Source: Bacilli bacterium (lineage in GTDB: Bacteria; Bacillota_I; Bacilli_A; ML615J-28; CAG-698). Taken from it: a DNA stretch of 64,000 bases. Shown piece after piece: positions 5,868 to 44,350 of this stretch. The stretch lies in assembly GCA_050953065.1 (NCBI GenBank), contig JBMNLZ010000002.1, forward strand, positions 64,001 through 128,000. The letters are read 5' to 3'. Made by a program: the position numbers and the translations under genes. Positions within the stretch are counted from its first letter, which is position 1, and every line of letters begins with the position of its first letter. A model generated the notes under the pieces. The model searched no databases, had not been told where the DNA came from, and was given only the letters and a program-made list of their open reading frames with translations.

Positions 5868-7192
5868 TTCTTTTCACCAATCTTTCTAAATTCTCCAACA
5901 TAAAGTGCTGCTGGTCTAATCATTCTACTACAATAAAGTTTGTTTTCAATATTATGAGCAACCCAACCTACCATTCTAGCTGTTGCAAATATTGGAGTAC
6001 ATAACTCTTCTGGAATATCTAACAATCTATAAGTTAAGCCACTATAAAAGTCAACATTCGCACAAACGTTAAAGTTTTCACCTTTTCTTTTCTTTAATTC
6101 TCTAATTGCAATTTTTTCAAAACGATAATAGAAATCAAATCTCTTACCCTCACCTTTTGAAATTGCTAATTCCTTACATTTTGTTCTTAATAGTTCTGCT
6201 CTTGGATCACTTTTTGTATAAACTGCATGACCTAATCCATAGATTAAACCTTTCTTATCATAAAAGTTTTTATCTAATAAATCATTAACTATTTTAGTAA
6301 TTGTATTATCAGTTGCATTAATTCCAATCTTTTTTATCACAGCTTTAAACATATCATCTACTTCTTTACTAGCACCACCATGTAGCGGTCCTTTTAAAGA
6401 ACCAAGTGCCGCAGAAACCGATGAATAAAAATCAGTTGCTGTAGAACTTACAACAATATTAGTAAAAGTTGAGTTATTAGCACCACCATGATCTGCATGA
6501 ATCATTAATAATAAATCTAATGTTTGAGCTTCTTCTTTTGTAAAGGTGTCTTCTTTTCTAAGTAAATGTAATATATTTTCTGCAATTGAATAATTTTTAT
6601 TAGGTAAGTGAACTATCAAACTATTCTCATCAATTAAATGTGATTTTGAATAATAAGTATAAACAGCTAAAGCTGGCATCTTAGCAAGTAAAGATACTCC
6701 TTTTTCTAAAACAACTTTTGGATCAGTTGAATCTGGATCTTCATCATAAATATAAAGAGTTAAAACATTTCTTTGAAGTTGATTCATTAAGTTTTTACTA
6801 GGATATTCTAAAATAACTCTAGTATTAAATTTTCTTGGTAAATTATATAAATTTGCTAGAGTTTTTTTAAACTCTTCTAATTCACTATCAGTTGGTAATT
6901 CACCAAACAATATCAAATAACAAATCCTTTCAAAGCCATATCTTTCATAATTTTGATTAACTAAATCATTTAAATCATAACCTCTATAATATAAATGTCC
7001 TTCATCATCTACTTTTTTCCCATCTACTATATTATAACCATGAACCTCACAAATTTTAGTAAGACCCACTAAAACTCCAGTTCCATTAACATTTCTTAAT
7101 CCTCTTTTTACATTATGTTCTTCATATAATTTTCCATCAATGAAATTTCTTTCTGTTGACTCTACATATTTTTTAGTTAAAAAATTGTCCAT
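5864..7192 (-). CDS. gltA: citrate synthase
   Basis: HADHGGANNSTF, GPLHGGA, GLGHAVY..SDPRA, NVDFYSG. Confidence 0.92.
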   Translation of the reverse strand: MDNFLTKKYVESTERNFIDGKLYEEHNVKRGLRNVNGTGVLVGLTKICEVHGYNIVDGKKVDDEGHLYYRGYDLNDLVNQNYERYGFERICYLILFGELPTDSELEEFKKTLANLYNLPRKFNTRVILEYPSKNLMNQLQRNVLTLYIYDEDPDSTDPKVVLEKGVSLLAKMPALAVYTYYSKSHLIDENSLIVHLPNKNYSIAENILHLLRKEDTFTKEEAQTLDLLLMIHADHGGANNSTFTNIVVSSTATDFYSSVSAALGSLKGPLHGGASKEVDDMFKAVIKKIGINATDNTITKIVNDLLDKNFYDKKGLIYGLGHAVYTKSDPRAELLRTKCKELAISKGEGKRFDFYYRFEKIAIRELKKRKGENFNVCANVDFYSGLTYRLLDIPEELCTPIFATARMVGWVAHNIENKLYCSRMIRPAALYVGEFRKIGEKK

Positions 7193-7201
7193 AGTTTTCT
7201 C

Positions 7202-29870: not shown

Positions 29871-30933
29871 TCAAAACACCACCTTTTTCTACTTTTATAA
29901 TTTTACTTTTATTTAATATTTCCTTTTCAATTAGATTAATTGAAGTTGTTGTAATAAAAATCTGATTCCCTTTTTCAAGCAAACTCATTAATTGGTTTTG
30001 CCTGATTTCATCTAATTCTGAAAAAACATCATCTAAAATCACTATTATCTCTTTTTTCTTAGAAATTAAGTACTCTCCAAGTGCAAACTTCAAAGCTATA
30101 CAAACTGTTTTCTTTTGACCTTGAGAACCATAAGCACAACAATCAACATCGTTTATCAACACTATAAAATCATCTTTGTGTGGACCAACGTTGGTATTTT
30201 TAGTAATTTCATCCCTTTGTAAACTGTTTTTAAAGTTTTCCTCATAGTTTTCCACATTTGTGTTTGGGTTATACACAATCTTCCCCATGTCTGTTTTCTT
30301 AGAAATGATGTTTTCCTTATTTTCAAAATAAGGATTTAAGCTTTTTATAAACTCTTCTCTTTTAGAAACAATGGCTTTTCCAACCTTAATTAATTCGTCT
30401 CCATAGATATCTAAAAGCTCTGAATCTATAATTTCTTGCTTCAAAAGATCGTTTCTTTCTTTTAAAAGTTTTTTATATCTAATTAAATCTTTTAAATAAG
30501 CCGGATCATTTTGTGAGATGCTAGAGTCTAAAAATCTCCTTCTTTCTGATGGACCGCCTTTTATAATCTCTAAATCATCTGGTCCAAAAAAAACCACACT
30601 ATAGCGTCCAACAAAGTCACTAAGTTGTTTGACCGTTTTACCGTTTATACTTATTTTTTTAGAACTTTGATCAACTATTAGGTTTATTTTTTCGGTTTTA
30701 TTGTTTTTCTCAATCCTTGCTTCAACACTAAATCCCGGTTCTCCAAACATTATAGCCTCTTTATCTATTGAAGTTCTATTTGATTTAGCAACACAAGTAT
30801 ACAAAACTGCTTCTACCAAACTTGTTTTACCCGTAGCATTTTCCCCTATTATTATATTAACACTGGGAGAAAACAAAACACGAGCTTGTTTATAACACCT
30901 AAAGTTGGCTACTTTTAATTCTTTTACATACAT
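29863..30933 (-). CDS. recF: DNA replication/repair protein RecF
   Basis: [42 protein letters not shown]. Confidence 0.95.
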
Positions 30934-30937
30934 AAAG

Positions 30938-31150
30938 CTATTCCTTGGTTATCATATATTCGGTTTTTAAAACTTTTATAACATCACCGCGATATAGTTT
31001 GCGTCCTCTTCTTTCTTCTTTTACCCCGTTTACCAAAACTTCTTTTATCATTAAGAAGTTTTTAGCATCAGAACCACCAGCAATTATCCCTTTAAGCTTT
31101 AAAAACTGCCCTAAAGTAATATATTCTGTATAAATTGCTACTTTTTCCAT
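30938..31150 (-). CDS. yaaA: S4-domain RNA-binding protein YaaA
   Basis: EYITLGQFLK..G....G..AK.F.....VLVNG..E.RRGRKLY.GD; upstream of recF. Confidence 0.92.
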   Translation of the reverse strand: MEKVAIYTEYITLGQFLKLKGIIAGGSDAKNFLMIKEVLVNGVKEERRGRKLYRGDVIKVLKTEYMITKE

Positions 31151-31254
31151 GTTTTAACTCCGTTTTTCTTTCTATATTATATTATACTCTTTTAATCACA
31201 AAAATACCACCTTTTTTTTACTTTTTTTTAGATTTTTTTAATTATTTAAATAAA

Positions 31255-31654
31255 GTATGTTTTTATGTATATATGTATGTATTTAACCCATCTTTTTTAT
31301 TGTTTGTTATAATTTTACAAAGATACCTCTTTATGTATATACATACAAACATATATACACTCAGTCTCCCAACCAAAAGTCTATACATACTTATATACAC
31401 ATTTATTTATATACATACAAACATACTTCCACATTTACATATTACCATATTGCATTTTTTTAAACTATGTGTTATAATATAACCATAAATATGTAAAGAG
31501 GTATATACATCTTTATTTATATACATATTTACATTTGTATGTTTATACACACAAACATATTGATGTATATACAAATATATGTTTATATGTATAAATGTAT
31601 GTATGTTTTTATTTATATACATACAAACATAAATATGTTTATATGTAAATAAAT
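31255..31654. repeat. centromere-like array of ATGT/ACAT tetramer boxes in 8-bp register (putative partition site)
   Basis: Boxes every 8 bp at 31257-31281, 31333-31357, 31389-31445 and 31491-31643 (20 consecutive positions, 15 exact, 5 with one mismatch). 24-mer TTTAT(T/G)TATATACATACAAACATA at 31330, 31402 and 31608. Confidence 0.85.
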
Positions 31655-32000
31655 ACCAAAACGGTTAAAAAAACAGTTTTGAAGAGTCAAAAAGTGAGTT
31701 TTTGGGTGTTTTTTTAAGAAAAAAATTTATGGGCTATTTTGATTTTTTGCCCCATATCCAAATAAAATTATTGTTTTAAACAAAAAAGCGATTCTAGGGC
31801 AAAATTTTGGCGGTTCTCGGCGTTTTGATTTTACGTTATTAACCCGTTTTGCCACTTACTGCTCTCGGGGGTGTTTTTTCTCACTTTTTGGTGGTGGTTC
31901 GCCAACGTGCCAAAGTTTGAAAAAGTCCTAAAACAAGCGTTTTTAAGGATCGAAGAGGTTTTTTTAAATCAAAAGCAGTTTTGTGAGATTAGCTTTTGGG

Positions 32001-32052
32001 GTGTTTATATGTATATACATACGTATGTTTATATGTATGTATGTATAAATGT
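32001..32052. repeat. second 8-bp-register tetramer array (putative operator / second partition site) upstream of the RHH-parA operon
   Basis: Boxes GTGT 32001, ATGT 32009, ACAT 32017, ATGT 32025/33/41/49. Shares the palindrome TATGTATATACATA with 31332-31345. Confidence 0.85.
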
Positions 32053-32125
32053 ATATTTTTTAAAGTTTGGTTTTAATTTAAAAATTAAAAAAATAAATGT
32101 CTAGTTTTTTAAGTGGAGGTATAAA

Positions 32126-32494
32126 ATGAATTCAGACAATCCTGTTTTAAAGAAAAGGGAAAACCCTTTTGCAAGAACACTTTCAGACGACCCTAAAGAG
32201 GTCCCAACAAAACCTGTAGTAGAAGAACCTGTAGAGCCTGTGGTTGAAAAAGAGGTTCATGAAGAACCAAAAGAAGTAAAGAAAGAAGTTGTACATGCTG
32301 TTAAAAAGCCTGCCCCTGTGGCTCCAAAACAAAAAAAGGTTATTGTTACATCTGATGAGCGTGTTAAATATACAGCAACGATGGATAAAGCCTTAAGATT
32401 CAGGGTAAAAATAGCTGCATTTAAGCAAGGTGTTGATTTTTCAACTTATATTGAGCAAGCTTGTGCACAGAAGTTAGAGGAGGATGGTGAATAA
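32126..32494 (+). CDS. ribbon-helix-helix protein with disordered N-terminus (ParG/omega-like centromere-binding protein)
   Basis: GGAGGT RBS; P/E/K/V-rich linker; C-terminal RVKYTATMDKALRFRVKIAAFKQGVDFSTYIEQAC fits the beta-alpha-alpha pattern; TAATG overlap with parA. Confidence 0.75.
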   Translation: MNSDNPVLKKRENPFARTLSDDPKEVPTKPVVEEPVEPVVEKEVHEEPKEVKKEVVHAVKKPAPVAPKQKKVIVTSDERVKYTATMDKALRFRVKIAAFKQGVDFSTYIEQACAQKLEEDGE

Positions 32495-33288
32495 TGCCTG
32501 TAATTTCGACGTTTTGTAAAAAGGGTGGCGTTGGAAAATCAACGTTTATTGGTTACTTAGCTCATTATTATGCCCTACAAGGGAAAAACATCTTAGTTAT
32601 TAGTGTTGATGACCAAAACAGTATTTTTAAGATATTTGGGGCTGAAAATGCTATTTTAGAAGATGATAGGAATTATTTTGATTATCTTATTCAAGGATTT
32701 ATCGAGCTTGGAGATGTTTTAATCAATATTAGGCCTAATTTAGATTTTATTAAGACTTTAAATACTGACACTCTATCTATCAAGATTACTCAAGAAAGAC
32801 GATTAGAGAAAGAGATTAAAAGAATTATAGAGAGTTATAAGACTTTTTATGATTATATTTTTATAGACTTCCCTCCTGCTAGCAGTAGATTAAGCGAAGT
32901 TTTGATTGATTTAAGTGATTCTGTATTAATTGTTGTTGGTTTAGATAGCTTAGGTTTGGGTGGATTTGTTAATGCTATTCAGTATTTTGTAGATAATGAC
33001 TTAGATATCGAGTTAATTAACTACATTTTACCTAACGGCTTTAGTAAAACAAAAAGAGCACCTAAGGTTTCTTTAGAAGCTTTAAAGATTCAAGCTTCTA
33101 ATTATACCCCAAATGCTTTGGTTTTACCGCCTTTAAACGATAGATCTGTTATTAAGAACCTTCAAGCAGAAGGAATTAGTGTTTTTGATAGTGCAGAATT
33201 ATCTAGATATGATACTAAATCAAGAGAAATTGTAAAAAAAGAATTAGTTGATTTGTTTGAGATGTTAAAATTTGAAAAGACCCCTTAA
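32494..33288 (+). CDS. parA: ParA family Walker-type partition ATPase (no N-terminal HTH)
   Basis: Deviant Walker A KKGGVGKST, A' box VDDQNS, Walker B YIFIDFPP; 264 aa. Confidence 0.92.
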   Translation: MPVISTFCKKGGVGKSTFIGYLAHYYALQGKNILVISVDDQNSIFKIFGAENAILEDDRNYFDYLIQGFIELGDVLINIRPNLDFIKTLNTDTLSIKITQERRLEKEIKRIIESYKTFYDYIFIDFPPASSRLSEVLIDLSDSVLIVVGLDSLGLGGFVNAIQYFVDNDLDIELINYILPNGFSKTKRAPKVSLEALKIQASNYTPNALVLPPLNDRSVIKNLQAEGISVFDSAELSRYDTKSREIVKKELVDLFEMLKFEKTP

Positions 33289-33305
33289 AAAAGAGGTCTT
33301 TTTTT
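33275..33305. terminator. bidirectional terminator between parA and dnaN
   Basis: AAAAGACCCCTT...AAGAGGTCTTTT hairpin with flanking A/T runs. Confidence 0.75.
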
Positions 33306-34429
33306 TATACAACTCTAATCGGAACTATCAGTTGTACCAAATTATCATCCTTTTCACCTGTTAAAACAAATGGTTTTAACTCTCCTGTGAAGTGAATTGT
33401 TATTTCTGTTGAGTCAAAAGCTTTTAAAGCTTCAATTAAATACTTTGCACTGCAAGCAATTTGGAAAGAAATCGCTGGATCTACGTCAATTGGTGCTATT
33501 TCTTCAACTACATTACCAATTTCATTGTTAATTGAGTTTAGTTTAACAACCTTGTTTGGATCAGTCACAATCTTTACAATTGTATTTTCTTCAAGATTTG
33601 TAAAAATGGTAGTTCTTTCAATAGCGTTAATTAATTCTGTTTTATTAAATTTAATATGAGTTAAGTAGTTTTCTGGAATTAAATTACTTGTATTTGGATA
33701 AACACCTTCAATTAACCTTGTTTGGAATAAAATGTTTTTGTATTTTATTAAAGCTTTTGTTAAGAAAAGATGTATTTCTATCGTACATTCAAAATCTTCT
33801 ACAATTCTATTTATCTCTTCTAGGCTTTTACGAGGGATAATAACACTTGTTTTAGGATTTGTTTTATCTAAAACAATCTTTTTCTTCGCAAGACGGAAGC
33901 TATCAGTAGCTACACTTTGAATTTCGTTGTTTTCAACCGTTAGATGAACCCCCATTAAAACTGTTTTTGATTCAGAAAGTGATGTTGCGAAAGATGTATT
34001 TCTTATAATACGCTTTAATTCATCACTTTTTAAGTTAACAACAACATTGCTTTCATCAAAAGCAAGCATTGGGAAGTTTGTTTTATCTAAGATATTCATT
34101 GAAATGTTACTTTTGTAAGCATATATCTTTAAAATTGTTTCTTCAAAGATTGCGAAGGTAATATCTTTTGAATCTATTTTTCTAACTGCATCAAGTAAAT
34201 ATTTGCCAGGTACTAAAACACTTCCTGTTTCTTCAATTTGTAGGTTTTCTCCTTGAGTTATATTTACTTTAATCGAAATATCTGAATTTGTTGCTGTTAG
34301 GTAAAGTATTTCTTTTTCAACTTCAATCATTATTCCAGACATCGCTGGCATTTGAACTTTAGCTGATAAAGCTTTTGAGACGTGATTTAAACTAAAAAGT
34401 AATTCATCACGGTTAATTGTGAATTTCAT
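33305..34429 (-). CDS. dnaN: DNA polymerase III beta clamp
   Basis: MKFTINR, LTATNSDISI, VATDSFRLA, RLIEGVYP, QLIVPIR. Confidence 0.97.
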   Translation of the reverse strand: MKFTINRDELLFSLNHVSKALSAKVQMPAMSGIMIEVEKEILYLTATNSDISIKVNITQGENLQIEETGSVLVPGKYLLDAVRKIDSKDITFAIFEETILKIYAYKSNISMNILDKTNFPMLAFDESNVVVNLKSDELKRIIRNTSFATSLSESKTVLMGVHLTVENNEIQSVATDSFRLAKKKIVLDKTNPKTSVIIPRKSLEEINRIVEDFECTIEIHLFLTKALIKYKNILFQTRLIEGVYPNTSNLIPENYLTHIKFNKTELINAIERTTIFTNLEENTIVKIVTDPNKVVKLNSINNEIGNVVEEIAPIDVDPAISFQIACSAKYLIEALKAFDSTEITIHFTGELKPFVLTGEKDDNLVQLIVPIRVV

Positions 34430-34512
34430 AAAATTTCTCCTTATATATATATTTAATTATAAAAACTATATTATGTTTATTAAGTAGTGTGGAAAAGTGG
34501 AAAACTATTATT
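34430..34512. other. oriC part 2 (dnaA-dnaN intergenic): DnaA boxes plus AT-rich unwinding element
   Basis: TTTTCCACA (34488-96) and TTTTCCACT (34496-504) on the minus strand, next to a nearly pure A/T stretch at 34441-34483. Confidence 0.75.
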
Positions 34513-35883
34513 TTAATCAATTAATTTAGTTAAATTGTCAATATCTTGTTTAGTTAAAGGGTTAGAAGTAAGTAAATCTTTAATTTTTTGGAAACTATGA
34601 GCAATTGTTGCATGGTCTCTGTTTCCTAAAGCTTTACCAATAGAAGTTAAAGGCGTATCGTGTTTAGTTTTAACCAAATAAACAAAAACATGACGAGCAT
34701 AAGCTATTTTGTTTTTTCTTGAGCTAGAAGAAAGGTCGCTTGTTGAAATACCAAAGTATTTTGCAACAATTCCTTTAATTTTTTCAATTTCAGCATCATC
34801 TGATGCTTCGCTCTTATTATCATCTGGTAAAATCCCATCTAAAGCAACTTTTACATTTTCTTTATTAAATGGAAGATCAAAAGAAACACAATAACTTATA
34901 AACCTTTTTAAAGCTCCTTCTAATTCCCTGATATTAACTGTAAAGATAGATGAAATTTCATTTAAAGCATCTTCTTCAACAAGTTCTGGATTAGAAACAA
35001 AAGATTTTAGTTTCTTTTTTAAGATTCCTAGTCTTAAAGCATCATCTGGAGCACCGATTTCAACAGCCAACCCCCAAGAGAACCTTGTAACAAGTCTTGA
35101 CATCATGTTCTTAAGGCTTTTGGCTGGTCTATCAGATGTTAAAACGATTTGCTTGTTGTGTGAATGTAGATAATCAAAGACTTTAAAGAATTCTTCTTGA
35201 GTAGAAGCTTTACCATCTAAAAACTGAATATCATCAACCAGCAGCACATCCGCTGATCTATAATAATTATAGAAAGTTTCAATTTCAGCTTTACCTTTTG
35301 GAATATTTGTATAATAAAAATAATCTTCGGTAAATTGTTGAGCTGTTGTATAGACAACATTCTTATTAATATCATTATCTAAAACAAAATGGCCAATAGC
35401 AGTCATTAAGTGAGTTTTCCCCAAACCGACTTCCCCAAAGATATAAAGAGGGTTTAAAACTGCATAAGGTGATTCAGCAATCTGCAAAGCTTGTGATGCT
35501 GCGAACCTATTGCTAGTTCCAATAACGAAGTTATTGAAAGTATATTCAGGTTTTAGTGGTCTTAAACTAATTTCACGCATTCTTTTTGTTTCTTGCGGAT
35601 CATCTTTAAAAACACCTTTAGATTGGTCAATTTCTTCTTCTAAAATGAACTTAAACATCATTTTAGTATCTGTTAGAGTGTTTAAGATTTCGTTCATTCT
35701 ATTTAAATAGAATTGTTCTAATCTAAATTTAATTAAAGCATTTTTAACAACAACAAAAATAAAACCTCTTTCAGTTTTATGTACTTTAGATAAATCAGCA
35801 AAAAGTTCAGAATAAGCATCATCTTTAACTTCAGTTTTTAGATTGTCTAGCACAGTTTGTAAAAGATTGGTACTTTCATCCAT
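34513..35883 (-). CDS. dnaA: chromosomal replication initiator DnaA
   Basis: Start moved to MDESTN (AGGAGA RBS); NPLYIFGEVGLGKTHL, LLVDDIQF, NIRELEGAL, GNRDHATIAH. Confidence 0.97.
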   Translation of the reverse strand: MDESTNLLQTVLDNLKTEVKDDAYSELFADLSKVHKTERGFIFVVVKNALIKFRLEQFYLNRMNEILNTLTDTKMMFKFILEEEIDQSKGVFKDDPQETKRMREISLRPLKPEYTFNNFVIGTSNRFAASQALQIAESPYAVLNPLYIFGEVGLGKTHLMTAIGHFVLDNDINKNVVYTTAQQFTEDYFYYTNIPKGKAEIETFYNYYRSADVLLVDDIQFLDGKASTQEEFFKVFDYLHSHNKQIVLTSDRPAKSLKNMMSRLVTRFSWGLAVEIGAPDDALRLGILKKKLKSFVSNPELVEEDALNEISSIFTVNIRELEGALKRFISYCVSFDLPFNKENVKVALDGILPDDNKSEASDDAEIEKIKGIVAKYFGISTSDLSSSSRKNKIAYARHVFVYLVKTKHDTPLTSIGKALGNRDHATIAHSFQKIKDLLTSNPLTKQDIDNLTKLID

Positions 35884-36157
35884 ATCTATCTCTCCTAAAT
35901 AGTAAAAATCAACGTAAATAGATAATACCACAAATCTTGAAAATAATAAAGGTTAAAATGAATTTTTTTTTAACATTTCCACATGTTGAAAAACAAATGA
36001 TAAAGTAGGGATAACAAAACAAGTTTTTAAATAAATATCAACACGTGGAAAAGTTGAAAGATATAAATATAACTTATAAAACAAAAAATTAGTTGCAAAA
36101 AGCTAAAAGGTGTTGTAAAATGGTAAAGCAAGAATATTTTAGGAGGAATACTAAAAA
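35884..36157. other. oriC part 1 (upstream of dnaA): degenerate DnaA boxes
   Basis: ATTTCCACA|TGTTGAAAA (35975-92) and ATATCAACA|CGTGGAAAA (36035-52). Gene strand bias changes from almost all minus to mixed here. Confidence 0.7.
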
Positions 36158-37264
36158 ATGAACCAATCAAAAGATGTGGCTAAAGAATCTATCTTTAAAA
36201 AGATTTTTGGCGGTGTAGGAAGTTTAAATAGTACTTTAATTTTATTTATTTGTTTACTTTATGCAATAGCGTTGCTTGCGATATATACAATTATTAAACC
36301 TGTCTATCATTATATTGCAATACCACCTTATGAACACGTGATTTATCATGAAGATGTTAATCCTTATATTCACGTAACAGCAAACAGAACTTATAATGAT
36401 GATAAAAAAGATTTTGATTTAAGTTATGATGTTATTGCGGTAATTACATCTTCTGCATCAGGAGAAGCTTATCGAAGAGAAAACCTAAAGTTTTCAATGA
36501 GTTCTTTAACTACTTCAAACAAAATGTATTACTTCACAGATATGTCAGGTTATAACACACCAATCTCACATAGCTTTAGTATGGATAACAGAGATAAAGA
36601 ACAAGTACCAAGTGCTTTGTTTATTAATCTTAGATATATGAAAAGAGTTTATGATGAAGAAAACAATATGACCAGAGAATGGGCTTCAACATCTTTAAGA
36701 GAAGAAGTAATGAATGATTTAATAGAAGATGAAGAAAATGTTTATAGTGCAAGTAGCTTATCAGTTGAAGAGTTCTTTACAGTTATTTTAACTGTTAATA
36801 AAGATGCTGATTCTGAAAAAGATAGATATACCACAAGAATCAATATTACAATCCCTGATAAAACAAAAAGATATCATGTAGATATGCAATCTTGGTTGGT
36901 AGATGAAAGTGGAGAAAATGTCTATCCTTATATTGGTGTTTATGGTTATAGTAGTAATACAACTAACTATTCATCAATTGGTTCTCAACCAATCGATGCC
37001 AGATTAAATGCAAAAACACTTTATCTTAAAGCAACATATTATGATGAATTAGATAACGTTAAAACTTTATTATATAAAAATGAATTAGAAAATTTAGTTT
37101 CAGGTCAAATCATTTCTGGGGAAGATAATTTACCACCAACAGTTGGTGCTAAAGAAGTTTCACCTTGGGTCTATGTAGGAGTTGCGTTAGGAACACTAAT
37201 TGCGGCTTCAGGAGTTACAGGGGTTATCTTATATATGAAAAAGAAAAAACAAACAGCGATTTAA
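36158..37264 (+). CDS. hypothetical membrane-anchored surface protein (N- and C-terminal TM)
   Basis: AGGAGG RBS; two TM segments flank a ~280 aa beta-rich domain homologous to the C-terminus of 37277..39214. Confidence 0.8.
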   Translation: MNQSKDVAKESIFKKIFGGVGSLNSTLILFICLLYAIALLAIYTIIKPVYHYIAIPPYEHVIYHEDVNPYIHVTANRTYNDDKKDFDLSYDVIAVITSSASGEAYRRENLKFSMSSLTTSNKMYYFTDMSGYNTPISHSFSMDNRDKEQVPSALFINLRYMKRVYDEENNMTREWASTSLREEVMNDLIEDEENVYSASSLSVEEFFTVILTVNKDADSEKDRYTTRINITIPDKTKRYHVDMQSWLVDESGENVYPYIGVYGYSSNTTNYSSIGSQPIDARLNAKTLYLKATYYDELDNVKTLLYKNELENLVSGQIISGEDNLPPTVGAKEVSPWVYVGVALGTLIAASGVTGVILYMKKKKQTAI

Positions 37265-37278
37265 AAATCGCTGTTTTT
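37251..37278. terminator. bidirectional terminator shared by convergent paralogs
   Basis: AAACAGCGATTT-AA-AAATCGCTGTTT. Confidence 0.8.
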
Positions 37279-39214
37279 AATTTGTAATTGGCTTTTTATA
37301 ATTTAAAGTGTTAACAGTAGAATCAACTATGTATGAGCAGGTAACATATAAAAAGGTAGGTTCAAAATAACTATAAATAGGAGTATATGCTTGGAAGTCA
37401 AGATTTCTTGTATTATCGGAATAATTATAAACTCCTACAACCGGTAAAAGCCCAAAATCTTTTGTATCTACCCAAACTTGTAAGTCAAGAGCATAACTAG
37501 CTAATTTATTAACAATGTTTACAGATAAAACACCAATATCATAACTTAGAATATATTCTTGATTAGCGGTTTCTCTTTCTATAATATCAATACTTATAGA
37601 AAAGTAATTAGTTAAAAAGTCATCATTACCAAAAATAGATGTATCTGTTGGAGTTGACATAAGAGTTTTTTTATAAGTTAGAGATTTATTTAAAGAGGCT
37701 TCATCTAAATAGTTAATATCTACAAAAACTTCTTTTGGTAAAAAAGATTTATTGTGAGTTGAAGTTAAAGAGAAGTTACTAATTAAACTTAAAGAGTTAT
37801 TAAAATAAGCAATTCTATCAGTTAAAGAAGAAACAGCTAAAGAACTTGATCCAGTATAAGGTGTAGCAGAATTTCTACTCTTATTAATTAAAGCAAAACG
37901 GCTAGTTGATTTTAGACTTCCAGAAGAACTTGTTTCGTTGGTTGTGATAACTCTTAAATGGCTATCTAAAAAATCATTAACTGTAAAGTGTGAATAATTT
38001 TCTGGCAAATGATAAACGACGTTTTCATAATCAGCGTTTTCCATTGTATTAATTAAAAGTTTTAAAACGTTGTTTTTTGTTTTAGCACTTTGAGTAATTT
38101 CGCCTTTTTCTACTTTAAAGATTAAAGGTAATTCATTAAGTGGAATTTTTAAATCATCAAAGTTTGTTCTCCAAGCTGTATTATCGCTTGAAAAGCTATC
38201 CGATAAACAAATAACATTCCTAGTGTTATTAATATTGAAAGCATAAAGTTTAAGATAGTCACTTATATTTAAATAATCGTTTCTTAAGTTAAGATAATCA
38301 ATAATTGTATTTTCAATTAAAGAGTTATCTTTTCCAGAGTCATAAACAAAAACATAGTATTTATTTGGTTTTTCATAGAGTTGTTGTTGATATAATTGTT
38401 CAACTTGTGAGAATGAAGAATAATCAATTCTTTCTATAATATTGATTTCAACAAAAGCAACACTTTCAAATCCTTCAATTGAAGCTTGTATAACTGCTTT
38501 ACCTAAAGAAAGGGCAGTTACCTCACCACGACTTGTAATAGTTGCTTTATCTGGGGTTAGACTTTCCCAATAAATTGTTGCATCATAATAAGGGTTAGGA
38601 CTAGCATTTAAAGAAATTGTTTGATTAACAAAAATATCGTAGGCTCCATCTATTATTAAAGTAGGAGTTGTTGGAATAACTGTTAAATCAATGGCATCGT
38701 AGTAACTTGGATTATCTGTGTAGTAGACTTTAATAGTTGTAATGCCAGCTGACAAGCAACTTAAAAAGCCGTTATTAGTAATAGTAGCAACGCTTGTATT
38801 ACTACTTTCCCAAGCAAGTAAGTTAGAACTAAAATTAGTTCTAGTTGTAAGGTAGGTTTGCATGCCTGGTTCAAAAGTTATAAAAGGGGAGTTAATAAAT
38901 AAGTTAACAATGGTAATGTTTCTTGTTGCTTTAACATCTTTGTTATTATTATAATAAAGTGTAATTACAACATTTCCTGTTGAAACTCCTTTAACAACCC
39001 CTTCTTGTGTTACAACAGCAATACTTGTATCAGAAGAAGTCCAAGTAAGGTTTGTTTTTAAGTTTTTAATGCCTTGAAGAGAGTAGGATATTTTATGCGT
39101 TTCACCAATTTTTAAAGCATTTACACTATCTGGTGTAAAAAAGATATCGGGTTCAGCTCTTCCGCAGCCACTCAAAGCTATCAATATAAATAAAAGGAAT
39201 AAAAGCTTTTTCAT
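37277..39214 (-). CDS. lipoprotein with three Ig-like (Big_2) repeats, a thioredoxin-like segment and an unknown C-terminal domain
   Basis: LSG-C lipobox; WTSSDTSIAVV..EG.V.GVSTG-type repeat three times. Confidence 0.8.
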   Translation of the reverse strand: MKKLLFLLFILIALSGCGRAEPDIFFTPDSVNALKIGETHKISYSLQGIKNLKTNLTWTSSDTSIAVVTQEGVVKGVSTGNVVITLYYNNNKDVKATRNITIVNLFINSPFITFEPGMQTYLTTRTNFSSNLLAWESSNTSVATITNNGFLSCLSAGITTIKVYYTDNPSYYDAIDLTVIPTTPTLIIDGAYDIFVNQTISLNASPNPYYDATIYWESLTPDKATITSRGEVTALSLGKAVIQASIEGFESVAFVEINIIERIDYSSFSQVEQLYQQQLYEKPNKYYVFVYDSGKDNSLIENTIIDYLNLRNDYLNISDYLKLYAFNINNTRNVICLSDSFSSDNTAWRTNFDDLKIPLNELPLIFKVEKGEITQSAKTKNNVLKLLINTMENADYENVVYHLPENYSHFTVNDFLDSHLRVITTNETSSSGSLKSTSRFALINKSRNSATPYTGSSSLAVSSLTDRIAYFNNSLSLISNFSLTSTHNKSFLPKEVFVDINYLDEASLNKSLTYKKTLMSTPTDTSIFGNDDFLTNYFSISIDIIERETANQEYILSYDIGVLSVNIVNKLASYALDLQVWVDTKDFGLLPVVGVYNYSDNTRNLDFQAYTPIYSYFEPTFLYVTCSYIVDSTVNTLNYKKPITN

Positions 39215-39286: not shown

Positions 39287-39907
39287 CTATTTTTTCGGTT
39301 CAATAATTAAATGTCTATCTGGTTCTTCACCTTCTGAGTGAGTTGTAACATCAGTCCAGCTAGCTAGTTTGCTGTGGATAATTTTTCTTTCATAAGAGTT
39401 GAAATTATCAAGTTTAATTGGTTTTTTAGTTTTAGAAACTTGTTTACCATATTCAACAGCCATTGCTTCAAGTTGTCTTTCTCTCCTTTTCTTATAACCA
39501 CTTATATCAATTAAAACAGTCTTTTGATCTTCTTCTGAATAATATTTATTAATAACGATTGGTAGGATTGTTTGAAGTGCGACTAAACCACGAGCATTCT
39601 TACCAATTAAATAACCATTAAAATCTCCTGCTTCAATATTAAACTCAACTTGGTTATCTCTTATTTTCTTTTCAACAAAAGCATCTATATCGTTGTGTTT
39701 AAAGATTGTTTGAAGATATTCTTTGCCTTTTTCAATTCCATCAACTGTACAAGTTACTTCAACTTCAATCTTTCCACCCATACCTAAAAATCCTTTTTTT
39801 TCTGATAATACTTCAAATTCAAGTTCAGAAGCAGGAATCCCTAATTCGTTAACTGCTAATTCTTTTGCTTCTTCAATTGATTTTACTTCAAATATTTTTT
39901 TAATCAT
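39287..39907 (-). CDS. jag: RNA-binding protein Jag/KhpB/EloR
   Basis: Jag_N (KKGFLGMG), KH (LIGKNA), R3H (ERKIIH...SEGEEPDRHLII). Confidence 0.93.
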   Translation of the reverse strand: MIKKIFEVKSIEEAKELAVNELGIPASELEFEVLSEKKGFLGMGGKIEVEVTCTVDGIEKGKEYLQTIFKHNDIDAFVEKKIRDNQVEFNIEAGDFNGYLIGKNARGLVALQTILPIVINKYYSEEDQKTVLIDISGYKKRRERQLEAMAVEYGKQVSKTKKPIKLDNFNSYERKIIHSKLASWTDVTTHSEGEEPDRHLIIEPKK

Positions 39908-39919
39908 TTTTTTATTCTC

Positions 39920-40834
39920 CTAATATTTAGCTTTTAATTTTTCTAATCTAACTGCGCTTCTTTTATGAGCGATATAACTTTGCATAGCAGAGTATGTATT
40001 ACCAACTAACCAATAAAAACCTAAGGCAGCTGGAGAAGTCAATACAAAGACAGCCATCATAATTGTCATACCATAAATCATATACTTCATCATTTTTTCT
40101 GATTGGATTTGTTGTTCTGTTTTTTCAGGTCTTCTGTATTCTGGAACATCAGATTGCATATCTTCACGCATTTTGCTTTGACGTTTAGTTATTAATACTT
40201 GACTTAATATTTGAGTTGCAGCAACTAATACAGCAAGGATTACTACTGCCCACATTTGCCAGTTCCCCCAAGCTGCTTTACCTGCACCAAGAAAAAGGTC
40301 TACACCTAAGATATTGTGGTTTAGAAAACCAAAATCTAATCGTAATCCTTCAATATTACAAGTTGCAGGAATTCTTCTTACAACCGAGAAGAAAGCAAGG
40401 AAGATTGGCATTTGAATAAATGGCATCAAACATCCACCAATTCCAAGTCCGTATTTCTTATATAATTGCATCATTTCCATTTGCATTCTTTGTTTACTTT
40501 CAGGATCATCTTTTCCTTGATATTTAGCTTGAATTTTTGCTTGTTCAGGTCCAATTAATTGCATTTTTAAACTCATATCATTTGTTTTACTATAAATTGG
40601 CCATGCTAGAGTTCTTACTATAATAGTAGCAAATAAAATAACTAGGGCATAGTTTCCAAAAGCAATAGATTTTCCTAATATATAGAAAAGCCCTGCCATT
40701 GGCCAAACAAATAAATCCATAAAGCCTGAAAAGCCTTGAATAGGTCCATCAGCTCTAGAGGATCCACAACCGGTTAATAAAAATAATAATGTTACAAAAA
40801 CAATTGGCAAAATAAATTTTCTAAAGTTTTTCAT
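39920..40834 (-). CDS. yidC: membrane protein insertase YidC
   Basis: LTG-C lipobox, TIIVR, GGCLMPFIQMPI, ALGFYWLVGN. Confidence 0.95.
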   Translation of the reverse strand: MKNFRKFILPIVFVTLLFLLTGCGSSRADGPIQGFSGFMDLFVWPMAGLFYILGKSIAFGNYALVILFATIIVRTLAWPIYSKTNDMSLKMQLIGPEQAKIQAKYQGKDDPESKQRMQMEMMQLYKKYGLGIGGCLMPFIQMPIFLAFFSVVRRIPATCNIEGLRLDFGFLNHNILGVDLFLGAGKAAWGNWQMWAVVILAVLVAATQILSQVLITKRQSKMREDMQSDVPEYRRPEKTEQQIQSEKMMKYMIYGMTIMMAVFVLTSPAALGFYWLVGNTYSAMQSYIAHKRSAVRLEKLKAKY

Positions 40835-41168
40835 CAGTGCTCCTTTTAATAATTTTATTTAAAAGAGATTTTAATTCGTTTGATTTTTCTTCAAAAGATA
40901 AATCAATTATTGAAGTTTTAGCAATAATTAAAAATGAATATCCTTTTAAGAAGTCAATCTCTTGTCTTAAGATTTCTTTTAAAACGCGTTTATAATAGTT
41001 TCTTTTAACTGCGTTTCCAAACTTTTTTGAAATAGAAATCGCAAACAAAGGTTTATCTAAGTCGTGCTTTAAATAGTAAACAACGTAATACTTATTCCCG
41101 ATGGTTTGTTTTTTGTCGAGTAAAGCTTTTATTTGATGATTTTTTTTAAGCGTATATATTTTATTCAT
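40821..41168 (-). CDS. rnpA: ribonuclease P protein component
   Basis: AISISKKFGNAVKRNYYKR; lies between rpmH and yidC. Confidence 0.93.
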   Translation of the reverse strand: MNKIYTLKKNHQIKALLDKKQTIGNKYYVVYYLKHDLDKPLFAISISKKFGNAVKRNYYKRVLKEILRQEIDFLKGYSFLIIAKTSIIDLSFEEKSNELKSLLNKIIKRSTDEKL

Positions 41169-41219
41169 ACAAAAAAAAGACCTCTCTTATTATATTTGAC
41201 ATAACGAGTGGTCCATTTT

Positions 41220-41354
41220 TTAAGCTGATAATCTAGTTCTACCTTTTCTTCTTCTGCGAGATAAAACGGCTCTTCCACCAACAGTCTTCATGCGAGCACG
41301 AAAACCATGAGTCTTACTATGTTTACGTCTATTTGGTTGAAATGTTCTTTTCAT
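41220..41354 (-). CDS. rpmH: 50S ribosomal protein L34
   Basis: Not in ORF track. Manual translation [44 protein letters not shown]; AGGAGGT RBS; promoter TTGACT(41410-15)-N17-TATAAT(41387-92). Confidence 0.98.
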
Positions 41355-41486
41355 GATAATACCTCCTAATTAAACTACGCTATTGTATTATATAAAAATA
41401 GACGATTTAAGTCAAGCAAAAAATGAAAAAAGATAAAAGTGATAATAAAAGATGCATTTTTAAATGCATCTTTTATTATATAGAAA

Positions 41487-42107
41487 CTAAATTAAACTTT
41501 TTGTTAGTTTTAAGAAAGGTTCAATGTCTTTATTAACTTTGAATTCTTCCATATAGTCAAAATATTCTTTATGATTATCACTTTTAAAAATTATTGGTGA
41601 TAATTCATTCTTTAATAATATATAATTTAAAACTAATCTTGCAAGGCGTCCGTTACCATCTAAGAATGGATGGATTTTATATAATTGTAGGTGAGCATAA
41701 ACTGCAAGGTATAGTGGATCTTCTGTTGGTTCGTTTATTGTTTCGAATAGTTTCTTCATTCGATCATAAACTTTTAAATAAGTTGGAGGGATATGACGAG
41801 AATGATTAACTCTGATATCAACATTCCTGTATAATCCGCCCTCAGTAATAGATTCAAATAAAATTTGATGTGTGTCTTTTAATAAATCTTCGGTTAAGTC
41901 TTTTCCTTCATTGACTAAGTTAATAATAAATTCCAATGCTTTTTTATGGTTACTAATGATTAGAGCTTTTTCTTTGTTGACTTTATCTAACTCGTTGTTA
42001 TAAACTGCTTCAACATCTTCTCTTGTAATGTTTTTTGTTCTATCAAATGCAAGAGAGTTAAAAGAAAAATCAACTAAGAAATCTTGGGGCAAAGCAACTT
42101 TTGGCAT
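41487..42107 (-). CDS. Fic domain protein
   Basis: Canonical HPFLDGNGRLAR motif. Confidence 0.92.
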   Translation of the reverse strand: MPKVALPQDFLVDFSFNSLAFDRTKNITREDVEAVYNNELDKVNKEKALIISNHKKALEFIINLVNEGKDLTEDLLKDTHQILFESITEGGLYRNVDIRVNHSRHIPPTYLKVYDRMKKLFETINEPTEDPLYLAVYAHLQLYKIHPFLDGNGRLARLVLNYILLKNELSPIIFKSDNHKEYFDYMEEFKVNKDIEPFLKLTKSLI

Positions 42108-42222
42108 AAAAACCTCCTTTTTAAAATCCTTACTTGATTATATCACACCTTAAATTAATAATAAAGGTTTAATCTTGAAAAAAAGAAGAAAAAAAATTAT
42201 AATAGGAGAAAAGAGGAAAAAA

Positions 42223-42993
42223 ATGAAAACAAAGATAGCCATTATAAAAACTTTCATATTGATAATTGTTACCTGTCTGGTAATGGCTTTTGTATGTTTG
42301 ATAAATTCTTGTGTTGAGTTTTATTTTGTAGAAAGAAAAATAGAAGAATTTGTTGATAGAGGAGAGTTTTATATAGAAATAGGTAGTACTAAATATTATA
42401 AAGTTTCTAAAGCTTATGAATATGAAGATACTTCAAGATTTGTTTTTAATCCTTTAAGTCCAAAAAGATATGTTGGAAGTACAGCTGATTTTTTATCTAC
42501 AACAAGAAATCCTTTAAGAGCCTATCCTATAATAGGACTGATTTCAAGACTTGCTTGGGCAGGACATAGTGCTTTAGTGACTGAAGAGGATGGTTCTAAA
42601 ATCTGTGAGGTTGTTGGGAATGAAGATGATCCAAAAGATAATTATGTAAGAATAGTAGAGAATGAATGGATTTCAGCAGATACTGGTTCTCCTCATATTA
42701 TCGGATTAAGAGTAAAAGGTTTAACAAATGAAGCTAGAGAGACTATTGTTGATTATGCTAACACTCAAGCTTTAGAAAAAGATAAGTATAACTTTTTATT
42801 TCCTTTAACTAGAAGTAATAAATATTATTGTACAGATTTGGTGAGTCGTAGTTATAATGAGGTTGATATTAATCTTAATAACGATGGTTTTATGACTAGT
42901 GGAAACGATATGATATTAAGCAAAGAAACATATATAATCTTTTTTAGAAAAAGAGTTGGGAATAAATTTTTAGTTTATTATTTAACAGAATGA
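42223..42993 (+). CDS. YiiX/YebB-like permuted NlpC/P60 cysteine hydrolase, membrane anchored
   Basis: Start MKTKIA; N-terminal TM; GHSALV...YNFLF...KYYCTDLVSRSY; ends in TGA. Confidence 0.8.
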   Translation: MKTKIAIIKTFILIIVTCLVMAFVCLINSCVEFYFVERKIEEFVDRGEFYIEIGSTKYYKVSKAYEYEDTSRFVFNPLSPKRYVGSTADFLSTTRNPLRAYPIIGLISRLAWAGHSALVTEEDGSKICEVVGNEDDPKDNYVRIVENEWISADTGSPHIIGLRVKGLTNEARETIVDYANTQALEKDKYNFLFPLTRSNKYYCTDLVSRSYNEVDINLNNDGFMTSGNDMILSKETYIIFFRKRVGNKFLVYYLTE

Positions 42994-43003
42994 GGAAAGT
43001 AAT

Positions 43004-44350
43004 ATGAATGATACAATAGTAGCAATAGGTACTGCCATAAGTAATAATGCTATTTCAATTATTAGAGTAAGTGGAAGTGATGCCATTAGTAAGGTGAGTG
43101 AAATTTTTAAAGGTCCCGATTTAAAAACAAGAGAAGCTAATTCTATTACATATGGTTTTATTGTTGATAAAGACGTTATAGTAGATGAGGTTTTAGTTAG
43201 TGTTTTTAAAAAACCAAAATCTTTTACAAAAGAAGATATTGTAGAGATTAACTGTCACGGTGGTGTTTTTGTTACAAACAAGATTCTAGAAATCTTGTTA
43301 AGTAAAAACATTAGACTAGCAGAACCTGGTGAATTTACTAAAAGAGCTTTTTTAAATGGTAGAATCGATTTAACTCAAGCAGAAGCTGTAATGGATGTAA
43401 TTGAAGCAGAAACTGATAATAGTTTAACTATGGCAACAAGCGCTCTAAGAGGAGATGTTAGAAAAAAAATAAATGCTTTTAAAGAAAGCCTTGCTCAAAC
43501 AATCGCAACAATTGAAGTTAATATCGATTATCCTGAATATGAAACCGAATTAGAGATTATTGAAAAAAGTATTAATCCAACAGTCTTAAAATTAAAAGAA
43601 GAAATAAAAGATATTTTAGAAAAAGCTAAAACATCTAAAATTTTAAAACAAGGAATCCCCACAGCTATTATAGGGAAACCAAATGTTGGTAAATCAAGTC
43701 TACTTAATGCGTTATTAAGAGAAGAAAAAGCAATTGTGACTGAAATTCCTGGTACTACAAGAGATACAGTAGAAGGTAAAATTAATCTTGGTGGGATAAT
43801 TTTAAATATAATTGATACAGCAGGAATTAGACAAACAAAAGATATCGTAGAACAACTTGGTGTTAAAAAAACAGAAGAGGTATTAAAAAAAGCAGAATTA
43901 ATAATTTTAATGTTTGATTATTCAATCCCTTTAGATAAAACAGATTTTGAATTATTAGAAAAAACAAAAGATAAAACTAGATTAATTGTTATTAATAAGG
44001 AAGACTTAGATAAACAAATAGATTTATCTAAAATAAAAGATTATATCTTACTTTCTGCTAAAAAAGAAGAAGATATAGAAAAGTTAGAATTAAAAATAAA
44101 AGAAATTCTTCAAATTAAAAACATTAAACCTGATAATAGTTATATTGCTAATGCTAGAGTAATAGCTAAACTAAAAGAAACGCTTGCTTGCTTAGAAAGT
44201 GCAAGTAAAGGAATAAATGATTCTTTACCAATAGATATTATCAATATTGATTTAACAAATGCTTTAAATATTCTAGGCGAAATCACCGGTGATGTTGTTA
44301 GAGAAGATGTTTTAGAACAAATGTTTTCAAGATTTTGTTTAGGAAAATAA
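43004..44350 (+). CDS. mnmE: tRNA modification GTPase MnmE/TrmE
   Basis: DTIVAI.T, EINCHGG, GKPNVGKSSL, IPGTTRD, DTAGIR, FCLGK. Confidence 0.97.
   Translation: MNDTIVAIGTAISNNAISIIRVSGSDAISKVSEIFKGPDLKTREANSITYGFIVDKDVIVDEVLVSVFKKPKSFTKEDIVEINCHGGVFVTNKILEILLSKNIRLAEPGEFTKRAFLNGRIDLTQAEAVMDVIEAETDNSLTMATSALRGDVRKKINAFKESLAQTIATIEVNIDYPEYETELEIIEKSINPTVLKLKEEIKDILEKAKTSKILKQGIPTAIIGKPNVGKSSLLNALLREEKAIVTEIPGTTRDTVEGKINLGGIILNIIDTAGIRQTKDIVEQLGVKKTEEVLKKAELIILMFDYSIPLDKTDFELLEKTKDKTRLIVINKEDLDKQIDLSKIKDYILLSAKKEEDIEKLELKIKEILQIKNIKPDNSYIANARVIAKLKETLACLESASKGINDSLPIDIINIDLTNALNILGEITGDVVREDVLEQMFSRFCLGK

Follow-up and report, generated by a model that had tools for sequence, protein, structure and literature searches.

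A probable origin-proximal partition module of type Ib build in one order of small-genome Bacilli

The stretch of DNA analysed here, 64,000 nucleotides that we call the window, corresponds to positions 64001-128000 of the 640-kb contig C2 in the genome of a Bacilli bacterium (G000; 1.55 Mb in three contigs, 93.9% complete, with a G+C content of about 29.5%, 0.293-0.297 per contig). Between yaaA and dnaN it carries a compact block of about 2.1 kb with three parts, a gene for a 122-amino-acid (aa) protein that we call the adaptor, a gene for a 264-aa ParA and arrays of short repeats, and this block, or cassette, is the subject of the present work. The genes gyrA, gyrB, recF and yaaA to its left and dnaN and dnaA to its right all lie on the minus strand. 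The left boundary is yaaA (30938-31150, minus), which encodes an S4-domain protein (Pfam S4_2, E 4.6e-23). It is followed by a non-coding region of 975 bp (31151-32125), the adaptor gene (32126-32494, plus), the ParA gene (32494-33288, plus) and, as the right boundary, dnaN (33305-34429, minus; Pfam DNA_pol3_beta domains), beyond which lies dnaA (34513-35931, minus). A first-pass annotation, made from the sequence alone, had described tetramer arrays, a gene for a 122-aa ribbon-helix-helix (RHH) protein and a short ParA without a helix-turn-helix (HTH) domain between dnaN and yaaA, and this layout was confirmed at the positions that it gave.

The stop codon of the adaptor gene and the start codon of the ParA gene overlap as TAATG, and a GGAGGA motif lies inside the 3' end of the adaptor gene; from this arrangement, the two genes appear to be translationally coupled. 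An inverted repeat with a T-run (33275-33302), read from the sequence at a place where the terminator scan made no call, is possibly the shared terminator of the convergent ParA and dnaN genes. No integrase-size open reading frame (ORF) was present within the cluster in the ORF list of the window, the flanking ORFs being scanned in part with Pfam. An Rfam search of 30900-36300 at E<=1 found no RNA gene in the spacer and only chance microRNA-like matches to A/T repeats, and a promoter scan returned promoter-like sites as often as in shuffled sequence (11 versus 12.5).

The cassette holds a fixed position among relatives. The adaptor gene is present in one copy each in 41 of 41 genomes, that is, our own and 40 relatives from two families and 27 genera. 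Each of the 20 best loci has the order RHH(+)-ParA(+)-dnaN(-), with yaaA(-) about 1-1.5 kb upstream in the 10 whose flank reaches that far. A species-level scan, with one genome for each of 185,579 species, found 83 relatives, of which 80 were kept; ParA follows the RHH gene in 80/80 of these loci, dnaN comes next in 79/80, and dnaA and yaaA-recF-gyrB are found in 77/80 and 59/80, the contig ending first where those neighbours are lacking. Both reading frames are intact at all loci examined. The first-pass annotation had proposed a search of relatives for the same cassette between dnaN and yaaA, and it was found there at 20 of 20 and 80 of 80 loci; its position inside the dnaA-dnaN-yaaA-recF cluster is the same in 100/100. 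The misassembly that the annotation had allowed for was ruled out, given that the same junctions recur in 100 independent assemblies. The records of the related loci are mostly metagenome-assembled genomes (MAGs) named 'Bacilli bacterium', and other labels are Acholeplasmatales, Acholeplasmataceae, Mollicutes, an 'Anaeroplasma bactoclasticum' MAG, 'Coprobacillus sp. CAG:698' and 'Staphylococcus sp. CAG:324'. Of 22 loci in sister families, 13 place dnaN less than 300 bp from yaaA, two others show 588 and 1071 bp between these genes, and the remaining 7 have no dnaN within the 1.5-kb flank. Because dnaN abuts yaaA in those 13 loci, the cassette is an order-specific insertion into the canonical cluster.

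The repeats of the 975-bp region are built on an ACAT/ATGT tetramer. ATACATA occurs in 16 copies, against 0.23 expected from the genome, 9 of the genome's 50 ATACATAC fall within the region, and Tandem Repeats Finder (TRF) gave periods of 4, 8, 12 and 24. The tetramer arrays of the first reading proved to be 38 phased boxes, far above chance (39 per kb versus 8.1 per kb across the window), in DNA with a G+C content of 21-24%. Four distal arrays contain 30 of the 38 boxes. Array A (31257-31280) has 4 ATGT boxes, 3 of them in one 8-bp phase, and matches the spacers of up to 46 of the 80 related loci; array B (31333-31352) has 3 boxes in a single phase, and array C (31385-31440) 6 ACAT boxes in mixed phase. 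The main distal array, D (31467-31646), comprises 17 ACAT/ATGT boxes in both orientations, 16 of which share an 8-bp phase, with TRF periods of 8 and 24, and is matched by up to 59/80 related loci; it is a candidate centromere. The proximal array E (32009-32052) has 7 boxes, 6 in one phase, and is a candidate operator. It covers a promoter-like site, TTTATA-18-TATATT (32028-32057), about 70 nucleotides 5' of the RHH start codon, which is no more than a weak hint. Between the distal and proximal arrays lies a box-free, slightly G+C-richer spacer (31660-32000) that is variable, matching 0-2.7 of 80 loci and no Rfam family; a conserved RNA or small gene was considered for this stretch and ruled out, as its sequence is not kept among relatives. 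No comparable array was found elsewhere in the 1.55-Mb genome. Five other genomic clusters of the 7-mers, considered as extra centromeres, were merely overlapping hits and not arrays, three of them within ORFs of 399-582 aa and the other two in short gaps between genes.

The phasing of the boxes extends to the relatives. Over 81 loci with 2255 boxes, the spacing of same-strand ACAT boxes peaks at 8 (323), 16 (190), 24 (138) and 32 (126), with 2-58 counts at each intermediate spacing, and boxes on the opposite strand fall in register with them at +/-8, +/-16 and +/-24; the unit reads approximately TACATAWA. Relative to the start codon of the adaptor gene (69 loci), the boxes form a proximal cluster between -150 and -50, the bin at -100 alone containing 136, the zone from -400 to -200 is nearly free of boxes, and the distal arrays extend from -450 to about -1500. 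At least one box lies within 200 bp of the start in 68/69 loci, and at least three in 46/69. The arrays are the sole spacer sequence conserved among relatives, where a single locus has as many as 64 matches to the 7-mers ATACATA and TATACAT or their complements, and the ACAT box is the only motif common to the two families of the order, f1 and f2. Iterated short repeats in proximal and distal clusters beside the operon are arranged as in type Ib systems. As a separate observation, 21 of 80 public contigs (L026-L105) stop inside the yaaA-RHH spacer, at most 1.8 kb upstream of the RHH gene, which fits short-read assemblies broken by repeat arrays.

The 264-aa ParA matches Pfam AAA_31 (E 2.2e-20) over residues 3-163, has no additional N-terminal domain and, among PHROGs, has its best family match in PHROG 164, 'ParA-like partition protein' (1e-29). 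Invariant in 26 orthologues are DDQNS, DFPP and the deviant Walker A motif CKKGGVGK[ST], which reads CKKGGVGKS in the protein of the window. It is thus a small Walker-type ParA with a deviant Walker A motif and without an N-terminal HTH, as in the type Ib class. Its AlphaFold2 (AF2) model has the ParA/MinD fold, with a predicted local distance difference test (pLDDT) score of 89, and its Foldseek neighbours are Soj, a Borrelia plasmid ParA, McdA, HpSoj and MinD. Soj structures rank on top, the delta protein of pSM19035 is 22nd and ParF of TP228 is 42nd. The sequence of the cassette ParA is remote from those of all solved structures, the closest being HpSoj (3.7e-8, phmmer). Its identity to the Soj of its own genome is 28% over 146 residues, and the best match in 72,556 plasmid records is also at 28% identity, a Lactobacillus gasseri ParA beside a DUF5388 protein. 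Over 73 loci, the mean distance of ParA is 0.37, versus 0.48 for DnaN and 0.48 for DnaA, and the distances of DnaN and DnaA correlate with a Spearman coefficient of 0.79. ParA divergence follows that of DnaN (Spearman 0.81), as the first reading had led us to expect. By these sequence distances, the ParA of the cassette exceeds DnaA and DnaN in conservation and diverges in step with them, and its constraint is stronger than that of DnaA.

An alignment of 20 orthologues divides the adaptor into three parts. The N-terminal peptide has the consensus MNxxPxKKRxNPF, with a KKRxNPF core at residues ~8-16 and N13 in at least 90% of the sequences. It is followed by an acidic, proline-rich linker (P/E/Q/V/K-rich) that varies in length from ~15 to ~80 residues. 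The C-terminal domain (~78-120) has the consensus REKYTATMDxxLRRRIKIAxAxxGxxFSxFIEEACxEKLxREG, and its putative DNA-reading strand, KYT[AS]TM, hardly varies in either family. K10, R11, P14, K81, T83, M86 and R91 are invariant in the alignment. The profile of the 20 orthologues matches SvtR, a solved RHH protein (PDB 2kel, E 2.4e-8). When the 20 members were scanned singly with Pfam, 56B_RHH was found in 8/20, RHH_10 in 8/20, Omega_Repress in 7/20 (best E 0.002) and ParG in 1/20 (E 0.016), those to Omega_Repress and ParG all being weak, and the window adaptor itself does not reach the curated thresholds of ParG (PF09274) or Omega (PF07764). The AF2 model places helices at 88-101 and 105-120, with pLDDT above 90, after the KYTATM strand, and gives low confidence to the first ~75 residues; the top 17 rows of a Foldseek search with this model are all RHH proteins, the best being Arc, StnY, AmrZ, SvtR and CopG. 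The profile match, the Pfam families, the model and the fold search therefore agree with the first-pass annotation in that the 122-aa protein is, as predicted from sequence and structure, an RHH protein.

At E<=0.001, 282 protein clusters belong to the adaptor family, and the sole name given by the sources among 120 listed is 'hypothetical protein'. Searches of 72,556 plasmids, 50,697 phages and IMG/VR gave no relative of the adaptor. A recent origin of the cassette from a plasmid or phage was ruled out by this lack of matches together with the 28% identity of the best plasmid ParA. A complex prediction with two copies of ParA, two of ATP and residues 1-40 of the adaptor scored 0.19, with the mark at 0.32, and speaks neither for nor against binding.

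The distribution of the cassette was compared with that of ParB in a sample of the class (300-301 genomes, at least 90% complete, from 29 families), which includes 36 genomes of the host order. The adaptor profile (E<=1e-5) matches 18/18 genomes of f1, 18/18 of f2 and 0/263 of the other families, and the cassette ParA profile (E<=1e-30) 18/18, 18/18 and 1/263. ParB (TIGR00180, E<=1e-10) is found in 0/18 genomes of f1, 2/18 of f2 and 210/264 elsewhere. The proposed anticorrelation with ParB thus appears in the sample, with ParB in 2/36 genomes of the order versus 210/264 elsewhere and the RHH gene in 36/36 versus 0/263. Our own genome matches the adaptor and ParA profiles and gives no ParB match. 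The single genome outside the order that matches the ParA profile, G271 (family f13), is closed, has a ParB and carries a cousin pair about 9 kb from dnaA (L126, G271:C1:279000-292000, at 6175-7332, minus), in which a 123-aa protein precedes a 261-aa ParA that scores 301 bits to the cassette ParA profile. The 123-aa protein has two motifs of the N-terminal type, KRxxPL, and a different, Pfam-less C-terminal domain. The tail motif accompanies this ParA subfamily in G271 as well, which favours a link between the two. Therefore, the module made of a ParA and a tailed protein has kin near other origins, and its DNA-binding domain is exchangeable. Two direct repeats of ~19 bp were seen upstream of the cousin pair.

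The absence of ParB and parS from the window, reported in the first-pass annotation, extends to the genome, with the exception of a methylase fusion. Searches of our genome with PF02195 and TIGR00180 for a ParB partner gave only this fusion and an XRE-type HTH protein; the weak TIGR00180 hits are these two proteins, and a hidden divergent ParB was ruled out on that ground. The only ParB_N domain of the genome belongs to the fusion, a 433-aa protein of ParB_N and an N6/N4 DNA-methylase (L001, G000:C3:333116-336367, at 484-1788, minus). It adjoins a phage-like ORF of 179 aa, presumably terminase-small-subunit-like, and the region looks like a prophage or mobile element. With the 16-bp parS consensus, the genome has 0 sites at <=1 mismatch and 12 scattered sites at 2 mismatches. 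SMC was not found in our genome (the best of the 14 candidates, all of them scored, had 42.9 bits versus a cut-off of 567), and neither was ScpA. In the class sample, SMC was found in 0/36 genomes of the order versus 148/263 elsewhere, and many families that have ParB are likewise SMC-negative; because two candidates were scored per genome, the order-wide absence of SMC is a lead only.

The first-pass annotation had also noted that no ParB/Spo0J gene lies after mnmE, the usual place of gidA-gidB-soj-spo0J. No spo0J was found by us either; a canonical Soj, however, had been overlooked, and it lies after gidA-gidB, ~20 kb before the start of the window and ~52 kb from the cassette (G000:C2:43510-44298, L003 1153-1947; 264 aa, AAA_31 1.4e-60). 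The gene that follows it encodes an MscS-like channel and not Spo0J.

The cumulative GC-skew minimum of the contig falls at ~31-32 kb of the window, which fits an origin nearby and does not separate the two spacers. These are distinguished by their DnaA boxes. The dnaA-dnaN spacer (34430-34512), part of the canonical origin, has two tandem TTTTCCAC DnaA-box-like sites, and several further boxes lie upstream of dnaA, in agreement with the place given for them in the first reading. Over 81 loci, DnaA boxes with <=1 mismatch number 13.4 per kb in the dnaN-dnaA spacer, 9.95 per kb in the 300 bp upstream of dnaA, 0.62 per kb in the yaaA-RHH region and 0.4-0.8 per kb in coding sequences. The 975-bp region was thus ruled out as oriC, since its density of DnaA boxes is that of the background, against a 15-20-fold enrichment on the two sides of dnaA. 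The arrays and the DnaA-box clusters are distinct.

The architecture can be compared with that of known systems that pair a ParA with an adaptor other than a canonical ParB. In plasmid TP228, the available text describes an operator of 8 ACTC tetramers with 4-bp AT-rich spacers, direct and inverted, and a parH region with 12 further tetramers upstream, each box binding one ParG dimer (PMC3130281). The present block likewise has degenerate tetramer boxes with 4-bp A/T spacers in both orientations, and these fall into two clusters, a candidate operator near the promoter and a candidate centromere farther away, as those passages describe for TP228 (PMC3130281). As in the ParF-ParG pair, so far as it is covered there, the small Walker-type ParA has no N-terminal HTH. 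The adaptor resembles ParG, as portrayed in the part of the source at hand, in being small, with an N-terminal tail that is basic and disordered and an RHH domain at the C-terminus, and in ParG and in ParB proteins generally such a tail, with a basic residue, activates ParA (PMC5393062). Unlike TP228, the cassette is chromosomal and fixed across the order, its box is ACAT instead of ACTC, and it has 38 boxes versus the 20 recorded in that text. The adaptor, with its long linker, has 122 aa versus 76 aa in ParG, and there is no usable sequence similarity between the systems (ParG in 1/20 at E 0.016, ParF 42nd by fold). The delta/omega system of pSM19035, also from a Bacillota host, has an RHH ParB and contiguous short repeats of mixed orientation upstream of promoters that serve as operator and centromere; in the portions of the article available, at least 4 contiguous heptads are required, and the N-terminal tail of omega activates ParA (PMC9499535). 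Its delta protein (2oze) is a fold neighbour of the cassette ParA at 23% identity. The present system differs in having an 8-bp instead of a 7-bp unit and a single coupled operon, and in being chromosomal, at the origin.

Chromosomal counterparts are also known. The archaeal SegA-SegB pair of Sulfolobales combines a chromosomal ParA-type ATPase with an RHH site-specific DNA binder, and the accessible part of its description reports that the unstructured N-terminus of SegB, with a basic residue, stimulates the ATPase and that the sites lie just upstream of the operon (PMC8682754). Our system is instead bacterial, has the adaptor gene first and has long phased tetramer arrays versus few palindromic sites. 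A PDB-wide search with the adaptor profile at E<=10 returned SvtR and a chance RAG1 match only and no SegB, the presence of SegB in that copy of the PDB being unverified. In Borrelia burgdorferi, an origin-proximal chromosomal ParA works under a non-ParB centromere-binding protein, ParZ, which is encoded in an operon with parA and acts via a conserved N-terminal peptide, according to the available portion of 10.1101/2022.07.05.498848. Borrelia retains ParB/parS for SMC loading in that account, unlike our genome, in which ParB and SMC/ScpA were not found. ParZ binds within its own coding region and has an LG(R/K)GL-like motif, whereas here there are external tetramer arrays and KKRxNPF, and in the accessible part of the source ParZ is not described as an RHH protein (10.1101/2022.07.05.498848). 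The canonical Soj/Spo0J/parS system is similarly origin-proximal, with a ParA of the same size and fold as that of the cassette; unlike it, the cassette has no ParB_N/HTH CTPase partner and no 16-bp parS was found, and its ParA is 28% identical to the Soj of its own genome.

Taken together, these results suggest that the block is probably a chromosomal, origin-proximal partition module of type Ib build, fixed vertically in one order of small-genome Acholeplasma-like Bacilli where ParB/parS were not found. The type Ib class is plasmid-borne, whereas this cassette is embedded in the dnaA-dnaN-yaaA-recF cluster on a 640-kb contig. Here 'type Ib' refers to architecture only and not to plasmid ancestry, because the ParA is equally far from plasmid ParAs and from its own Soj, and because the RHH protein has no plasmid or phage kin. 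The domestication of a type Ib system proposed in the first-pass annotation is therefore retained as far as the architecture, the vertical fixation and the ParB-less pattern are concerned, and is not retained for the descent from a plasmid. In the mechanism that we propose, RHH dimers would bind the ACAT boxes via their beta-ribbon (KYTATM), the 8-bp spacing corresponding to a 4-bp box and a 4-bp A/T spacer in either orientation. The adaptor would coat the distal arrays, which would serve as the centromere, and on the proximal array it would cover its own promoter and lead to autoregulation. The many flexible N-terminal tails, with the basic KKRxNPF, would contact ParA-ATP dimers bound to the nucleoid and cause ATP hydrolysis, so that the origin with its arrays could follow a ParA gradient and sister origins separate without a ParB clamp dependent on cytidine triphosphate (CTP). 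The adaptor tail might act on the orphan Soj as well as on the cassette ParA. A wider proposal is plausible but more tentative, namely that in the whole order (at least 83 genomes at species level) neither ParB/parS nor SMC-ScpA has survived and the origin is segregated by a CTP-independent ParA/RHH machine that reads phased ACAT arrays, with the adaptor tail perhaps also driving the orphan Soj.

Several observations weigh against this interpretation. The window adaptor taken alone has no NCBIfam match and no Pfam match at E<=0.1, and its Foldseek matches to RHH structures, of ~1 Å root-mean-square deviation across ~36 residues, all have E above 1. At every locus parA comes after the adaptor gene, whereas parFG and segAB have the opposite order. 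Family f2 has fewer ACAT boxes, and its region is dominated by a second repeat, the palindrome GTTTTAAnTTAAAAC, in 4-10 copies. This 15-bp palindrome recurs every ~31-55 bp between the ACAT boxes of the distal and proximal groups, at -450 to -800, in f2-type loci such as L029, L060, L064, L077 and L045. It has 114 hits in 117 kb of spacers versus 33 in 464 kb of the rest (81 loci), and the window has a single copy with one mismatch (32070-32084). A retained Soj is found in 39/41 genomes of the order, with 48-66% identity and typically 30-40 kb from the cassette, and this orphan Soj could be the main segregation ATPase or a DnaA regulator. With regard to ParB, 2 of the 36 genomes of the order give hits, G033 and G283. 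That of G283 is weak (1.4e-11), and the only strong one in the order comes from a parA-parB pair of G033 on a 3761-bp contig with 24-28% G+C (L119, G033:C94), the ParA of which is Soj-like, the second in that genome and 37% identical to Soj; the contig may belong to a plasmid, have strayed in during binning or come from the chromosome itself. The anticorrelation with ParB has no statistical weight, because one clade represents a single evolutionary event. Moreover, family f21 has ParB in 0/15 genomes and the RHH gene in 0/15, and the cassette is therefore not the sole route to life without ParB.

Other explanations of the block have been considered. The module could be mainly a regulator of the origin, with the RHH protein as a repressor or architectural factor on its own promoter, on yaaA-recF-gyrBA and on dnaN, and the ParA modulating DnaA or acting as a co-repressor. 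Soj of B. subtilis regulates DnaA, RHH proteins are typically repressors, with Arc, CopG and AmrZ at the top of the Foldseek search, and the cassette lies within the dnaA-dnaN-yaaA-recF cluster, ~1.2 kb from the DnaA boxes. Moreover, the proximal boxes overlap a promoter-like site in the window and their cluster is kept at -150 to -50. However, the proximal operator would suffice for autoregulation, and the 30 of 38 boxes that are distal, and the up to 64 7-mer hits in relatives, go far beyond the need of a repressor and are parH-like. A conserved N-terminal peptide of the ParA-activating type on a long flexible linker is atypical of plain repressors, and a Soj able to regulate DnaA is already present. 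A mainly regulatory role is thus unlikely, and it would be compatible with segregation.

The strict 8-bp phasing of one tetramer in both orientations over 81 loci is the signature of protein binding rather than of A/T richness, and it makes quite improbable the idea that the arrays are structural DNA of the origin, be it an unwinding or curved A/T-rich element or the sites of another factor, not read by the RHH protein, with ParA/RHH acting elsewhere. The low G+C content of the region (21-24%), its position at the GC-skew switch and the second, unrelated repeat in the same region of f2 loci would agree with such a role, but the boxes lie by the adaptor's own promoter in 68/69 loci, KYT[AS]TM is near-invariant in both families, whose only shared motif is the ACAT box, and the DnaA boxes and the canonical origin are elsewhere. 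It is also very unlikely that a partition cassette of a plasmid or phage once integrated here and that the block is what remains of it, dead or selfish and without a chromosomal role. Although its architecture is like that of plasmid type Ib systems and PHROG 164 is the best family match of its ParA (1e-29), it is single-copy and fixed in position over 27 genera, both of its frames are intact and its ParA is more conserved than DnaA and DnaN. In the ORF list, in which part of the flanking ORFs were scanned with Pfam, only housekeeping genes flank it (yaaA, recF, gyrB, gyrA, dnaN and dnaA), and the adaptor has no plasmid or phage kin.

Some further features of the region were recorded. In 3/3 f2-type spacers inspected, a block TATGTATATTCCTTAT(n)TTATATATAATAT lies ~200 bp from yaaA (L060 ~2870-2910, L064 ~2865-2905, L045 ~2805-2845); it may be a promoter, and it was not found in the window. 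Beyond dnaA, over 36158-39214 and 39287-44350, the window has rnpA, yidC and jag on the dnaA strand, and between dnaA and these genes there are two large Pfam-poor ORFs of 368 and 645 aa, which probably encode surface proteins. A Fic-domain gene (41487-42107) and a C92 amidase gene lie between rnpA and mnmE, and the gene after mnmE is PAP2 and not gidA. Thirteen sequencing runs, 8 of them recorded as RNA, contain 0.05-0.33 of the stretch and are uninformative on expression or habitat.

ParABS with a CTPase ParB is regarded as the near-universal partition system of bacterial chromosomes, and the families listed as lacking chromosomal par genes in the available part of PMC7022226 are Enterobacteriaceae, Pasteurellaceae and Mycoplasmataceae only. 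A search of the open-access full-text literature gave no account of an origin-located ParA/RHH system on a bacterial chromosome; the nearest precedents found are archaeal SegAB and Borrelia ParA/ParZ, and ParZ is the only bacterial non-ParB adaptor among them. What is new here is that, in place of ParB, a bacterial chromosome carries a module of type Ib architecture, and the 282 clusters of 'hypothetical protein' would gain a name. If our interpretation is true, the order would provide the first known case of a bacterial chromosome that depends on an RHH protein for centromere binding and not on ParB, and the plasmid type Ib design would be able to take over a chromosome. The compact three-part system of ~2.1 kb could be tested in heterologous hosts. 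The order would represent a natural experiment on what ParB-SMC is needed for, and would raise the question of how origins are organised without ParB-loaded SMC.

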